DNA from: an uncultured Chlorobiota bacterium
Lineage (GTDB): Bacteria > Bacteroidota > Bacteroidia > Bacteroidales > JAADGE01
Direction: 5' to 3'
Length of the DNA stretch: 64,000 nt
Assembly: GCA_947311255.1 (NCBI GenBank)
Contig: CAMZKL010000031.1
Location: 28,024 to 92,023, forward strand
Both the position numbers and the translations under genes were made by a program. This document shows, one piece after another, positions 4,908-11,067 of this stretch; the stretch's first letter is position 1, and every line of letters starts with the position of its first letter. The notes below the pieces were generated by a model. The model worked only from the letters and a program-made list of their open reading frames with translations, had not been told where the DNA came from and ran no database searches.

Positions 4908-4947
4908 TAAAAAAAACCGATATTTTATAAATATCGGTTAAAAAAAT
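4908..4947 (-). terminator. intrinsic terminator downstream of trpB
   Basis: Stem aaccgatat / atatcggtt, flanked by A/T runs on both sides. Confidence 0.7.
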
Positions 4948-4977: not shown

Positions 4978-6147
4978 CTAAATTCTTTCTACATCTTTGT
5001 CTCCTCTTCCCGAAACATTTATTATTGCAAGTTGATTTTTGTTTTTAAGTAATTTGAGAGCTAATGCAACAGCATGAGCAGATTCAACAGCAGGAATAAT
5101 TCCTTCTTTTTCAGAAAGTAATCTAAAAGCACTTATTGCTTCTTTGTCAGTTATTCCATAGTATTTTACTCTTCCTGTGTCTCTTAAATATGCGTGTTCA
5201 GGTCCAATTCCTGGATAGTCAAGTCCTGCAGCAACAGAATGCGAGTTGATAGGATTTCCTTCTTTATCTGCCAAACAAAGTGAATTTGTTCCTTGAAAAA
5301 TCATTTCTTTACCTAAAGTTAATGTGGCTGCAGTTTTATCTGTATTAATGCCCTCTCCCGCTGCCTCTGCTGCAAAAAGTTTTACATTCTCATCAGAAAT
5401 AAAATCTTTGAAAATTCCAATTGCATTAGATCCTCCTCCAATACATGCAAGAACCGCATCTGGAAGTTTTCCTTCGGCTTCTTTTATTTGCTTTTTAGCT
5501 TCTTTTCCTATTATACTTTGGAAATGTGCAACCATAGTAGGGTAGGGGTGTGGACCTACTGCCGAGCCTAATAAATAATATGCATCAGGATGCTCAATAT
5601 AATACCCGAGTGCAGCATCAACTGCGTCTTTTAAAGTTCCTAATCCTTGTGTTACCGGAATTATTTCAGAACCCAAAAGTTTCATCCTGTCAACATTGAG
5701 AGATTGTCTTTCAATATCTTCAGCCCCCATAAAAACCTTGCACTTCATCCCGAATAGTGCAGCAGCAGTTGCAGTTGCAACACCATGTTGCCCTGCACCT
5801 GTTTCTGCTAATATTTGTTTTGCTCCAAGTTTTTTTGCTAATAATATTTGACCTATTGTATTATTTATTTTATGAGCACCTGTATGGTTTAGGTCTTCTC
5901 TTTTTAAATATATCTTACTTCCTATATCTTCCGATAATCTTCTTGCATAATAAAGAGGAGATGGTCTTCCTACGTATGTTTTTAATAGGCTAATAAATTC
6001 TTCTTCAAATTCTTTTGTAAAAGCGTATTTTTTAAAAGATTCTGCAAGGTTTTTTAATTTTCCTTCTAAAACCGGAGGGACAAATCTTCCGCCATATTTT
6101 CCAAAATATCCTTCTTTTTCTTTATTTACTTGTATCTGAGTTGTCAT
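4978..6147 (-). CDS. trpB: tryptophan synthase beta subunit
   Basis: 389 aa with GKYGGRFVPP, LNHTGAHKINN (PLP lysine), GAGQHGVATA and GGGSNAIG motifs. Confidence 0.9.
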   Translation of the reverse strand: MTTQIQVNKEKEGYFGKYGGRFVPPVLEGKLKNLAESFKKYAFTKEFEEEFISLLKTYVGRPSPLYYARRLSEDIGSKIYLKREDLNHTGAHKINNTIGQILLAKKLGAKQILAETGAGQHGVATATAAALFGMKCKVFMGAEDIERQSLNVDRMKLLGSEIIPVTQGLGTLKDAVDAALGYYIEHPDAYYLLGSAVGPHPYPTMVAHFQSIIGKEAKKQIKEAEGKLPDAVLACIGGGSNAIGIFKDFISDENVKLFAAEAAGEGINTDKTAATLTLGKEMIFQGTNSLCLADKEGNPINSHSVAAGLDYPGIGPEHAYLRDTGRVKYYGITDKEAISAFRLLSEKEGIIPAVESAHAVALALKLLKNKNQLAIINVSGRGDKDVERI

Positions 6148-6274
6148 TTTATTTGTTTTATATTTTTATTATTAAAAAGTTTTGATGTGTTTTTTTAAAG
6201 TACATTGCCAAAGATTTTCAATAATGTTTAACCATATTAAGATAATTTTTTTCATAAAATTGAATTTTTGATAT

Positions 6275-6305
6275 AAAAAAAGCCGCAGGTGAGATACCTG
6301 CGGCT
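6275..6305 (-). terminator. intrinsic terminator / candidate trp attenuator
   Basis: 10-bp GC-rich stem agccgcaggt (6281-6290) / acctgcggct (6296-6305). In the minus sense it is followed by a 7-nt U-run. It lies between the leader ORF and trpB. Confidence 0.7.
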
Positions 6306-6332
6306 TTGGATAATATTATGTGTATAACAAAA

Positions 6333-6401
6333 CTATCGCAAAGAGTTATCTCCTTGTTTTAAATTTTTGCTATGCCACCAATTGTTTTTTAAAAAAATCA
6401 T
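6333..6401 (-). CDS. candidate trp leader peptide (22 aa, tandem Trp codons)
   Basis: Hand translation: ATG ATT TTT TTA AAA AAC AAT TGG TGG CAT AGC ... TAG = MIFLKNNWWHSKNLKQGDNSLR. The UGG UGG pair is at 6375-6380. The stop lies 27 nt before the terminator stem. Confidence 0.6.
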   Translation of the reverse strand: MIFLKNNWWHSKNLKQGDNSLR

Positions 6402-6467
6402 TTTTTCTTTTTCTTATCTGCAAATAAAAACAGATTTTATGAAATAATAAAATTTTTTTTAATTTTT

Positions 6468-7400
6468 TTAGAATTTTACTGAAAATCCTATTCCTAATAT
6501 TTCTTTGAATTGTATTCTTTTGCCTGCTCCATCAACAATTCCATCATTATTGCTATCAAGTGGAACATCAATATCGTGGTCATATAATAATTGTGTGCTT
6601 AAATTAGCTGTGATATATTTGTTAATTTTCATGCCTAATAGCACTTCCCAGTCAACATCAATATTTTGAGGATTATTAAGGTAATTTGAAAATAAACCAA
6701 GTTTTGTGATTAAACTTACATTTTTAATTACCTCTTTTGTGTAAACTGCTTTTAAATAACCTCCAAATTCATTTCTGATATTTTTTGTAGAGTCAACACC
6801 AAAAGCTCCCATATCAGCAAGTCTTTGGTTGTTAACAATTGTAGTTTTGGAAGTTAATGGAGCAACAAAAACTGAAAGCTCTTTATTTGGTCTATAATCA
6901 ATACCGACTGCTGCAAGAAGGTATGCAGGAGCTAATAAACCCGAAATTTCAATAGAATCATTTGGGTAATTATAACCGTTTGTAAATTGAGTTTTGAAAT
7001 CTATTAAAGCAGCATAGTAAAGTTTTTCTGTTGCTTTTAAACCTAGCTTTGAAGCAAAATTAAATTTATCATCAGTTTTCATTAACATTGAACTTCCACC
7101 TTTTCCTTGCTTTTGAAGACCATAGCCTAAATCAAGAGTATTGTCCCAAGTTAATTTTCCTTGTTTGTAGTTAGCAAATAATCCTGCAATTCCATTAAGA
7201 GAAAGTGTGTTGATACCTCCTGCTGCCCAATTTGTGAAATTACTTTGTCCAAATGTTAAAGCAAATATTCCACCTTTTTTCCAACCGTCTGTTGTGTCTT
7301 TGCTTATTTTTTTTAGTGAACCTTCGCTACCCGTATTTTGAGCTAGATTAATCCCAATTGTAAATACAGCAATTAAAATTGTTAATGTAAATTTTTTCAT
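6468..7400 (-). CDS. DUF3078-like outer-membrane beta-barrel protein
   Basis: Signal peptide, NWAAGG motif, alternating beta-strand pattern and a C-terminal aromatic residue. Confidence 0.7.
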   Translation of the reverse strand: MKKFTLTILIAVFTIGINLAQNTGSEGSLKKISKDTTDGWKKGGIFALTFGQSNFTNWAAGGINTLSLNGIAGLFANYKQGKLTWDNTLDLGYGLQKQGKGGSSMLMKTDDKFNFASKLGLKATEKLYYAALIDFKTQFTNGYNYPNDSIEISGLLAPAYLLAAVGIDYRPNKELSVFVAPLTSKTTIVNNQRLADMGAFGVDSTKNIRNEFGGYLKAVYTKEVIKNVSLITKLGLFSNYLNNPQNIDVDWEVLLGMKINKYITANLSTQLLYDHDIDVPLDSNNDGIVDGAGKRIQFKEILGIGFSVKF

Positions 7401-9654: not shown

Positions 9655-11067
9655 TTATTGATTAATAATAAACTCGACTCTTCTGTTGTTTTGTCTTCCT
9701 GCTCTTGTTTTGTTTGTGTCAATTGGTCTGTCGCTTCCGTAACCAACAGCTTTTAATCTAGAAGCTGAAATACCTTTATTAATTATATATTGTTTTACTG
9801 CATCTGCACGTGCTTGTGATAATGTTTTGTTTTTGTCATAGTTTCCAGTATTGTCAGTATGTCCTTCAACAAAGAATTTTACATTTGGATAGGTGTTCAT
9901 TATTGAAATTACATTATCAATATCTTTATATGAAGTTGTTTTTATTGTTGATTTGCCTGTATTGAATTGAATATTTTTAGCACTAAATCTAATTTTATCT
10001 TCAATTTCTTTTTTCTTTTTTTCTTTCATTTTAGGGCAACCTTTCATAGCAACTGTTCCTGCTTTGTCTGGGCAATTGTCTTTGCTGTCAACAATACCAT
10101 CGCCGTCTCTGTCTGGGCATCCGTTTGCAGATTTGTGACCTTTAACTTTTGGACATTTGTCATTTTTGTCAGCAATCCCATCTCCATCAGTGTCAGGGCA
10201 ACCATTGAATTTAGCTAAACCTTTTACTTTTGGGCAGTCATCATTTTTATCGGCAATACCGTCTCCATCAGTGTCGGGGCAACCTTTAAATTCTGTAAGA
10301 CCTTTTACTTTTGGGCAGTCATCATTTTTATCGGCAATACCATCACCATCAGAATCAGGGCATCCATTAAATTTTGCATCTCCTTTTGTATTTGGACAAT
10401 CATCATTTTTGTCGGCAATACCGTCTCCGTCAGAATCTGGACAGCCTTTAAATATTTCTAAACCAGCAACATCAGGGCATTCGTCTTTTTTGTCTGATAT
10501 TCCGTCTCCATCTCTGTCTGCACCTTTGCCAAGTCTAATTTTAATACCAAATGTTGTTTCATAATAGTTGTCTAAATCAAATCCGTAGTTGTAACCTGTT
10601 TCAGCATTAATAGCAAGGTATTCGTTTACCCAGAAATTAAGACCTAAACCTCCGTTTACAACAGGGCTTTTAACATTATCTAGAATGAATAAGCCTCCAT
10701 TACCAAATAAATAAGGATCAAACCAATGGTCATCATCCATTAAAAAACTTAAGAAACGAACTTGTACTCCTGCATCCCATTTCCAATAATCTTTGTCCGT
10801 TATAGGCTTGTTATACTTTTCAATATCGCCTAAGGTAAAGGATGTAGCTATGTTTATTGGCTTGATTAGGTTGTAAGCAAGATTAAAATGTGTGGGACCA
10901 GCATAGAAATTAACATGGTCTTTTTCATAGAGACCTCCACCGTCAGGTCCAAAATAGTCGTTCAAAGTAGCACTTATGCCAAATGCAAATTTTTTAGTTT
11001 CGTTTTGTGCAAAACTCATATTTGCCACTAGTGTAAGAATAAAAATTGTAACAATTAACTTTCTCAT
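9655..11067 (-). CDS. OmpA-family protein with thrombospondin type-3 repeats (paralog of 8032..9477)
   Basis: Same architecture as 8032..9477. The C-terminal 120 or so residues are near-identical between the two, ending RAGRQNNRRVEFIINQ. Confidence 0.85.
   Translation of the reverse strand: MRKLIVTIFILTLVANMSFAQNETKKFAFGISATLNDYFGPDGGGLYEKDHVNFYAGPTHFNLAYNLIKPINIATSFTLGDIEKYNKPITDKDYWKWDAGVQVRFLSFLMDDDHWFDPYLFGNGGLFILDNVKSPVVNGGLGLNFWVNEYLAINAETGYNYGFDLDNYYETTFGIKIRLGKGADRDGDGISDKKDECPDVAGLEIFKGCPDSDGDGIADKNDDCPNTKGDAKFNGCPDSDGDGIADKNDDCPKVKGLTEFKGCPDTDGDGIADKNDDCPKVKGLAKFNGCPDTDGDGIADKNDKCPKVKGHKSANGCPDRDGDGIVDSKDNCPDKAGTVAMKGCPKMKEKKKKEIEDKIRFSAKNIQFNTGKSTIKTTSYKDIDNVISIMNTYPNVKFFVEGHTDNTGNYDKNKTLSQARADAVKQYIINKGISASRLKAVGYGSDRPIDTNKTRAGRQNNRRVEFIINQ

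Follow-up and report, generated by a model that had tools for sequence, protein, structure and literature searches.

A probable tryptophan leader-peptide attenuator and a second conserved tryptophan-containing mini-gene upstream of an orphan trpB gene in an uncultured Bacteroidales bacterium

The 64,000-nt stretch of genomic DNA analyzed here (the window), which is part of contig CAMZKL010000031.1 of an uncultured member of the Bacteroidales, contains a trpB gene that stands apart from any trp operon. The leader preceding this gene is very probably a ribosome-mediated attenuator of transcription, a member of the trp-leader class of Bacteroidota, that controls a unit of one gene, the orphan trpB, and between its terminator and trpB a second short Trp-containing open reading frame (ORF), uORF2, was found. 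Coordinates are given as positions in the window, and both the leader and trpB lie on the minus strand. The leader ORF, uORF1 (6401..6333), has 22 codons plus a TAG stop (ATG at 6401-6399, TAG at 6335-6333) and encodes the predicted peptide MIFLKNNWWHSKNLKQGDNSLR, in which codons 8 and 9 are a tandem UGG UGG (6380-6375), the presumed sensing site; this minus-strand ORF and its adjacent Trp codons, already pointed out in a preliminary description of the locus, can be read directly from the sequence. The intrinsic terminator (6307-6275) consists of a 12-bp stem with 7 G-C pairs, a 5-nt loop and a run of seven U residues. Its 5' arm AAAGCCGCAGGT occupies 6307-6296 and its 3' arm ACCTGCGGCTTT 6290-6279; the loop ATCTC (6295-6291) lies between them, and the U run covers 6281-6275. 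The preliminary description had placed a 10-bp hairpin at 6281-6305, which agrees within 2 nt with the G+C core, whereas the full stem comprises 12 bp and spans 6307-6279; similarly, its distance of 27 nt from stop codon to hairpin became 25 nt when measured to the full stem and 28 nt when measured to the G+C core, while the 7-U run stood as described and the distance of about 125 nt to the trpB ATG (6147) was measured as 127 nt from the U run.

Upstream of the uORF1 ATG the sequence was A-rich and lacked a Shine-Dalgarno sequence, a lack that is usual for Bacteroidota. A putative -7 promoter box, TTTATTTG (6428-6421), having one mismatch to the Bacteroidota consensus TAnnTTTG, was located 20 nt 5' of the ATG. 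The region 6440-6260 was predicted to fold with a minimum free energy (MFE) of -44.1 kcal/mol, as opposed to -25.6 ± 3.9 kcal/mol in 200 dinucleotide shuffles (z = -4.73), none of which was as stable. The hexamer TGGTGG was present at 628 sites in the genome (2.8 Mb, both strands), among which the window locus was the only one lying in frame within a short ATG ORF with a terminator no more than 70 nt beyond it.

The genome, 94.5% complete in 75 contigs, possesses a single trpB (6147..4978), which is monocistronic and encodes a protein of 389 aa with a PALP domain and a score of 561.5 bits against TIGR00263 (cut-off 392); a terminator of its own (4939..4915), with an 11-bp stem and a U run, closes the one-gene unit. 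A profile search revealed no Trp_syntA match anywhere in the genome, and tblastn of the genome with TrpE, TrpG, TrpD, TrpC, TrpF, TrpB and TrpA of a related organism gave nothing for TrpD, TrpC, TrpF and TrpA; apart from trpB itself, the sole find was a TrpE/TrpG-like pair at about 81.8-83.3 kb of contig C6, divergent and probably pabB/pabA. No tryptophanase was found in the genome. Judged by this gene content, trpB is the only trp pathway gene of the genome and the host is a predicted Trp auxotroph with an orphan trpB. Since trpA, trpC, trpD and trpF are absent, the enzyme would serve the salvage of outside indole and not synthesis from chorismate, and the conversion of indole plus serine to Trp is probably the only plausible use of it.

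Relatives of this TrpB fell into two groups, an orphan type with 59-80% identity and an ordinary operon type with 50-57% identity. Of 300 genomes sampled from the same order, 30 carried the orphan type, which was monocistronic, with differing neighbours, in every locus read. No TrpA match was obtained from 25 of these 30 genomes; four had a clear TrpA gene, each together with a TrpB of the operon type, and one gave a sub-threshold TrpA match only (25 bits). Upstream of the orthologous trpB, 28 distinct loci, belonging to many families of the order, had an ORF with WW or WWW followed by a terminator, with leader ORFs of 16-26 codons (median 21), Trp runs of WW (13 loci), WWW (14 loci) or WLW (one locus) and stop-to-terminator distances of 21-39 nt (median 26.5). 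The strict scan missed seven loci, including one for which only 85 nt of upstream sequence was available and one that had both uORFs and an imperfect stem. A box of the form TnnnTTTG was located 12-57 nt 5' of the leader ATG in 22 of the 28 loci, compared with an estimated 13% or so expected by base composition; therefore, the leader appears to be a transcription unit of its own.

In an alignment of the 28 leaders, the UGG run and the terminator formed the (nearly) invariant blocks and the remainder was not alignable. Compensatory changes were found at 8 of the 9 consensus pairs of the terminator stem, and the terminator alone emerged in the RNAalifold consensus, the two further hairpins described below (P1 and P2) not being alignable across families. 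The base following the Trp-codon run (6374 in the window) was C in 24 of the 28 leaders, with varied next residues (H, Q, R or L), and an A+U motif (AAUAU/AUAUA; 6311-6320 in the window) was situated 5-12 nt before the terminator stem in most of them. This motif, often part of the small hairpin P2, is visible in the Rfam Bacteroid-trp seed as well. A pattern scan of all genomes with TGGTGGC...GCCGCAGG...CCTGCGGC returned mostly high-G+C noise, from which 11 Bacteroidota matches with a U tail were used; it added 10 named Bacteroidota loci (Marinilabiliales, Rikenellaceae, Bacteroidaceae, Perlabentimonas and others), seven before an orphan-type trpB (TrpB 60-68% identical to that of the window), one before a trpB with 54% identity, within the ordinary operon range, and two before TrpB2-type genes; a further match, L182 (see below), has no trpB after its leader. 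The architecture of ribosome-mediated trp attenuation claimed in the preliminary description thus recurs, with leader and terminator kept in 28 loci, and is unique in the genome. That description had also named two findings which together would speak against it, the lack of a covariance-model match and the lack of conservation of the WW ORF; only the former was encountered (see below), the WW ORF being conserved.

In both the MFE and the centroid folds, a hairpin (P1, 6373..6324) was predicted that starts immediately downstream of the Trp codons and extends across the stop codon of uORF1, comparable to a '1:2' structure. Its outer helix joins AUAGCAAAA (6373-6365) with UUUUGUUAU (6332-6324) and its inner helix CAAGGAG (6356-6350) with CUCUUUG (6345-6339); the 9-bp outer helix was retained with different bases in a relative of the same genus (L093). 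The small hairpin P2, formed by GUUAU (6328-6324) with AUAAU (6319-6315), overlaps bases of P1 and was retained in the same-genus relative with both sides changed (GUAAU/AUUAU). For the stalled state, the part covered by a ribosome at the Trp codons was masked and the transcript was ended before the 3' arm of the terminator. A candidate antiterminator was obtained in which 6352-6332, the end of uORF1 including its stop codon, pairs with 6314-6291. The latter segment comprises the spacer, the entire terminator loop and a portion of the terminator 5' arm, and GAGAUA pairs with UAUCUC. The energy of this candidate was -14.3 kcal/mol (z = -3.07), and 1% of 150 shuffles were as stable. The best partner of the terminator 5' arm plus loop lay across the uORF1 stop codon in nearly all relatives, and the predicted pairing of the 5' arm across relatives rose from 0.34 with the ribosome at the stop codon to 0.53 with the ribosome stalled.

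The following course of events is proposed. Transcription would start about 15-20 nt before uORF1, at the putative promoter, and a ribosome would translate uORF1 as RNA polymerase advances. With charged tRNA-Trp plentiful, the ribosome would reach the stop codon at 6335-6333 and cover the segment there, so that the terminator could form and most transcripts would end. Without translation, P1 would sequester the segment around the stop codon with the same outcome, termination. When charged tRNA-Trp is scarce, the ribosome would stall on UGG UGG and open P1, whereupon the freed 6352-6332 could pair with 6314-6291; this pairing would delay the terminator and allow the polymerase to read through into trpB, the product of which would then convert indole and serine to Trp. 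As modelled, the three-state logic is very likely, while the exact antiterminator pairing is tentative. A further pairing, between GUGGC of the Trp codons and GCCGC at the start of the 5' arm, was present in the untranslated fold. It was dismissed as an antiterminator, since GUGGC would be hidden under a stalled ribosome and the logic would be wrong, but it may account for the conservation of the C that follows the Trp run.

Several results weigh against an attenuator at this locus. Across relatives, the antiterminator gave a Stouffer z of 1.9, with energies overall no better than those of shuffles, and it did not form a conserved, covarying helix. A swap test gave p = 0.09 for the loop alone, although for the arm plus loop own pairings were more stable than swapped ones (p = 0.02), a result in favor of the pairing. 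The terminator was more stable than the alternative fold at equilibrium, and the attenuation model therefore depends on kinetics. The Rfam Bacteroid-trp model (RF01692), a scan with which had been suggested in the preliminary description, gave no match at the trpB leader: none at its gathering score (49 bits) over the window, none at E <= 10 in a search of 421 nt (6100-6520), and none among the genome-wide hits. The model of E. coli trpL (RF00513) was not among the 15 matches with E <= 10 in the same 421-nt search. Finally, the hairpin may double as the terminator of the upstream DUF3078 gene (7400-6468), a dual role which the preliminary description had considered and which fits the finding of no other terminator between the DUF3078 stop at 6468 and position 6307. 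That description had also reported no convincing antiterminator by eye, a fair assessment, the one candidate found here in the window having weak support across relatives.

The possible dual role of the hairpin can be extended to an alternative in which it is the DUF3078 terminator only, the WW reading frame arose by chance in A+T-rich spacer DNA, and a separate promoter downstream drives trpB. Short ORFs are common in DNA of 29% G+C, and the DUF3078 gene has no other candidate terminator before the hairpin. However, the ORF and the terminator travel with trpB and not with DUF3078, the genes upstream in relatives being unrelated or divergent; the Trp codons, the ORF length and the stop-to-stem spacing are kept in 28 loci; the arrangement occurs once in the genome; and the promoter-like box precedes uORF1 in 22 of the 28 loci. 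This alternative is accordingly judged to have almost no likelihood.

As for the Rfam searches, no family reached its gathering score over the whole window, and the matches at E <= 10 within 6100-6520 (rteR on the opposite strand, the trpB motif, STnc40 and others) were rejected as chance matches, all of them resting on the hairpin and similar scores being obtained at other terminators. RF01692 also missed 20 relatives as well as the leader MTKMVLYSNIQLWWWHSFIRCCVKPL (L122) of a trpEGDCFBA operon from the same order; because it fails on a canonical operon leader of that order, its failure here says little on membership of the class. Weinberg et al. (2010, PMC2864571) described Bacteroid-trp as a class of leaders located before trpB or trpE in Bacteroidetes, in which at least two UGG codons are conserved and a hairpin is loosely so. 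All features of that definition were found at the window leader: it lies directly upstream of trpB, with relatives among named Bacteroidales, Marinilabiliales, Rikenellaceae and Bacteroidaceae; UGG UGG is present in its 22-codon ORF, and WW or WWW in 27 of the 28 relatives; and a hairpin (P1, not alignable across relatives) followed by a terminator was predicted. The RF01692 seed has its parts in the order AUG, UGGUGG(UGG)C, hairpin, small A+U hairpin and start of the terminator. The window leader resembles Bacteroid-trp in phylum and in its location relative to trpB or trpE. Both have a short ORF containing two to three adjacent UGG codons, often with C or a His codon next, and in both the Trp codons are immediately followed by a hairpin, after which come a small A+U-rich hairpin and a terminator. 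It differs in that, in the subfamily before orphan trpB, the terminator stem (GCCGCAGG/CCUGCGGC) is strongly conserved, the controlled unit is one orphan gene and, in most members, a second Trp-containing uORF follows, which the canonical trpE leader of L122 lacks.

A covariance model built from the 28 orphan-trpB leaders (R1) was searched against 301 genomes of the order. It gave a single match in the genome of the window, at the trpB leader (90 bits, E = 2.5e-15), and matches in 125 genomes. Among the best 89 matches, at least 39 had a TrpB gene no more than 450 nt downstream, and at least 24 were followed by one on the same strand at a distance of 0.45-7 kb, which places them before trpE-led operons. 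Inspection of 15 of the other 26 revealed seven trpB or trpE leaders, two leaders before trpB2, one before a gene for DAHP synthase, one Cys-codon leader before cysK and four bare terminators. Since a model made from orphan-trpB leaders alone retrieved canonical trp-operon leaders, the window element is placed by sequence within the known Bacteroidota trp-leader class, catalogued in 2010, as a divergent member, in agreement with the class suggested in the preliminary description.

A different kind of leader was considered in view of the trpB motif (RF04312). This riboswitch candidate occurs in Firmicutes and Fusobacteria, where in most cases it precedes a gene for an ABC transporter (Narunsky et al. 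2024, PMC11109978), and its authors could exclude neither a riboswitch nor a classic attenuator (PMC11109978). Like the window leader it has two hairpins, the second being a terminator, and it is sometimes found upstream of trpB; an antiterminator was proposed in the 3' shoulder of its first hairpin (PMC11109978). RF04312 aligned with the first hairpin and the terminator of the window leader (6371-6270) at 27.3 bits (E = 0.086 in the 421-nt search). The leader might on this basis be an RNA binding a ligand or a protein, for example a relative of RF04312, the Trp codons being incidental, and the two functions left possible for that motif would accommodate such a relation. However, the score is far under the gathering score of 59, other, unrelated terminators of the same genome scored 22-24.5 bits, and the motif was reported from Firmicutes and Fusobacteria. 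Moreover, the sole conserved blocks of the leaders are the in-frame UGG run and the terminator, which suits a sensor acting through peptide codons and not an aptamer. A binding RNA is therefore regarded as very improbable.

Compared with E. coli trpL (RF00513, Yanofsky model), the window leader, read as an attenuator, has in common with it the tandem Trp codons of the leader peptide, a hairpin including or adjoining these codons, an intrinsic terminator upstream of the first structural gene and a logic of three states (uORF stalled, completed or untranslated). It differs in having no sequence or model match to trpL and no Shine-Dalgarno sequence, and in having 13 codons after the Trp codons versus 3 in E. 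coli. In addition, the antiterminator in the window, weakly supported, seems to use the terminator loop and the spacer, whereas E. coli trpL forms a long 2:3 helix.

Trp T-box leaders occupy the same position and have the same job, the sensing of tRNA-Trp charging before a closely related trpB. By eye, T-box-like leaders were recognized at this place, among the top TrpB relatives read, only in L020, L021, L023 and L024 (Firmicutes, Izimaplasma), whose TrpB proteins are 58-61% identical; therefore, other lineages also use the position before trpB for sensing Trp. Uncharged tRNA is bound directly by T-boxes via RNA-RNA contact, whereas the window leader would rely on a translated ORF. The T-box model gave no match at the gathering score over the window and was not among the 15 matches with E <= 10 in the 421-nt search. 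In L023 and L024, both metagenome-assembled genomes of Izimaplasma, the T-box-like leader is followed by a Shine-Dalgarno sequence and a conserved mini-ORF, ATG GGA CCT TGA, just before trpB, which would encode Met-Gly-Pro and a stop, or Met-Gly-Pro-Trp-Arg and so on if UGA were read as Trp.

The second Trp-containing mini-gene, uORF2 (6255..6172), has 27 codons plus TAA (6174-6172) and encodes the predicted peptide MKKIILIWLNIIENLWQCTLKKHIKTF; its two Trp codons occupy 6234-6232 and 6210-6208. Neither uORF2 nor the genome-wide lack of the rest of the trp pathway had been noted in the preliminary description. The distance from the terminator stem to the start of uORF2 is 23 nt and that from its end to the trpB ATG 24 nt, and it is not followed by a terminator. 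The loci could be divided into a short form (n = 6), in which the terminator is 36-46 nt from trpB and uORF2 is absent, and a long form, in which the terminator is at least 100 nt from trpB (n = 21, or n = 29 with the extra named loci). An ATG ORF with W-x7-W was present at the place of uORF2 in 18 of the 29 long-form loci, as against 0.09 expected from dinucleotide shuffles, and the gap between the two Trp residues was exactly seven codons in all 18. Across loci the uORF2 ATG lay 13-34 nt after the terminator stem. Other positions were conserved as well: hydrophobic residues precede the first Trp, N, K or R is found two residues after it, and the second Trp is preceded by F or L and then R or L and followed by R or Q, giving a family motif of roughly [YI]-I-[IL]-x-W-[LIW]-[NKR]-x-[IV]-x-[FL]-[RL]-W-[RQ] with variable tails. 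The Arg codons varied (CGA, CGU and AGA), and selection on the peptide or the codons is therefore indicated. Other long-form loci had F-R-W-R only, or W-W-W-R-G-L-P-A fused to a G+C hairpin (L015, L105), and an ORF similar to the latter type, with a TTG start, was found in L149 and L162. No convincing leaders or WR-type mini-ORFs were found before more distant TrpB genes.

By its conservation across loci, uORF2 is a real conserved element, and on the read-through transcript it probably acts as a second check of Trp. The conservation of non-Trp residues together with the fixed spacing of the Trp residues suggests that the nascent peptide matters and not the codons alone. It is possible, and proposed here tentatively, that uORF2 represents an undescribed family of Trp-sensing mini-genes that follow a first attenuator, have no terminator of their own and are specific to stand-alone indole-salvage genes (orphan trpB and trpB2). 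No conserved structure joining uORF2 to the trpB start was seen, the spacer being A+U-rich with a weak fold that differs by locus. From the second Trp codon of uORF2 to trpB, the spacer contained 15.5% C versus 8.2% G, as compared with 11.8% and 12.2%, respectively, upstream of uORF1. This composition is compatible with a Rho entry site and is also typical of unstructured leaders; a ribosome stalled on uORF2 might shield the C-rich spacer from Rho or RNases.

These properties raise the alternative that the uORF1 terminator is mostly constitutive, serving as an insulator or set-point, and that the switch lies in uORF2, at which stalling would control Rho-dependent termination, mRNA decay or translation of trpB. 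The conservation of uORF2 in 18 of 29 loci versus 0.09 expected, its fixed spacing both from the stem and between the Trp codons, the C-rich and G-poor spacer and the weak antiterminator of uORF1 are all in its favor. Nevertheless, the six short-form relatives have uORF1 and its terminator directly before trpB and no uORF2, and therefore the first module appears sufficient on its own; the geometry of uORF1 is conserved as well as that of uORF2; and an excess of C over G is common in unstructured 5' leaders of Bacteroidota, which makes it weak evidence for a Rho site. Control by uORF2 alone is thus considered unlikely, though with some residual probability for the long forms, and attenuation at uORF1, with uORF2 as an added check, is preferred.

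In the tna operon, a ribosome stalled on the leader peptide TnaC blocks Rho, and the hallmarks of TnaC are a Trp, an Asp four residues later and a C-terminal Pro-stop. Like TnaC, uORF2 encodes a short leader peptide containing Trp, lacks a following terminator and is separated from the structural gene by an untranslated spacer. It differs from TnaC in that the peptide (...IWLNIIENLWQ..., ending in KTF) has neither an Asp four residues after Trp nor a C-terminal Pro-stop, and the logic of TnaC would need to be reversed for uORF2, with induction by starvation and not by free Trp.

A Trp attenuator based on a ribosome and a leader peptide is ordinary and known for Bacteroidota, whereas a second conserved Trp mini-gene following it adds a layer to the switch beyond the textbook attenuation model. 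Carriers of an orphan trpB probably switch on the salvage of indole to Trp only when tRNA-Trp charging drops, and such regulated salvage would provide a testable link to indole cross-feeding in anaerobic communities. For annotation, the curated Rfam model misses the whole subfamily and also ordinary operon leaders of the order, so that automated annotation leaves these switches and small ORFs unmarked; the 28-sequence alignment and R1 could seed a broader model of the Rfam type. The same leader design before trpB2, a DAHP synthase gene and, in a Cys version, cysK hints at a wider use of leader peptides in the phylum.

These additional leaders were as follows. The WW/WWW design was located before a DAHP synthase gene in L251 (G272:C39) and before TrpB2-type genes in L253 (G171:C32), L256 (G070:C7), L141 and L200, the last of which also has the uORF2 motif (MKGYLVKWWRYINFRW...). 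In L258 (G166:C103:6500-11200), the leader ORF MKINKLNNTCCCSRIKVCCR, with five Cys codons of which three are adjacent, was found at about 10799-10918 on the minus strand, with a terminator 27 nt before cysK (TIGR01139, 444 bits); from its sequence it looks like a cysteine-sensing leader-peptide attenuator built like the trp leader. Two complete WWW leaders, MNTNRLNNYWWWQ... and MNNSNLHIWWWH..., are arranged in tandem before trpE in L250 (G004:C37:1-3700), and paired R1 matches 120-260 nt apart were observed in G280:C117, G291:C64, G118:C8, G072:C6 and G036:C152. Tandem trp attenuators seem to be common in this order.

Individual loci showed rearrangements around the leader. L182 (WTBR01000076.1) has uORF1, the terminator and uORF2 (MYNYQYIIWWRRIDFLWRNLC) intact with no trpB after them; in place of trpB there are several copies, in both orientations, of a unit like CGTGCTACGGAT, and its trpB may have been lost or displaced. 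In L143 (CAJXLE010000051.1), an 11-nt unit, CCCCTTAGCGG with A or T added, is inserted in about five tandem copies between the terminator and uORF2.

In the window, the trpB terminator is followed by a gene of the Crp/Fnr family (4647-3958), and mscL and two genes of the OmpA family are also located upstream of the leader, beside the DUF3078 gene. In two relatives, L014 (5332-6708) and L017 (2557-3933), a tryptophanase gene on the minus strand is convergent with and adjoins the orphan trpB; the L014 TnaA matched NF053783 with 860 bits and the L017 copy was judged by similarity. An indole-making and an indole-using enzyme are therefore encoded by neighbours in these two loci.

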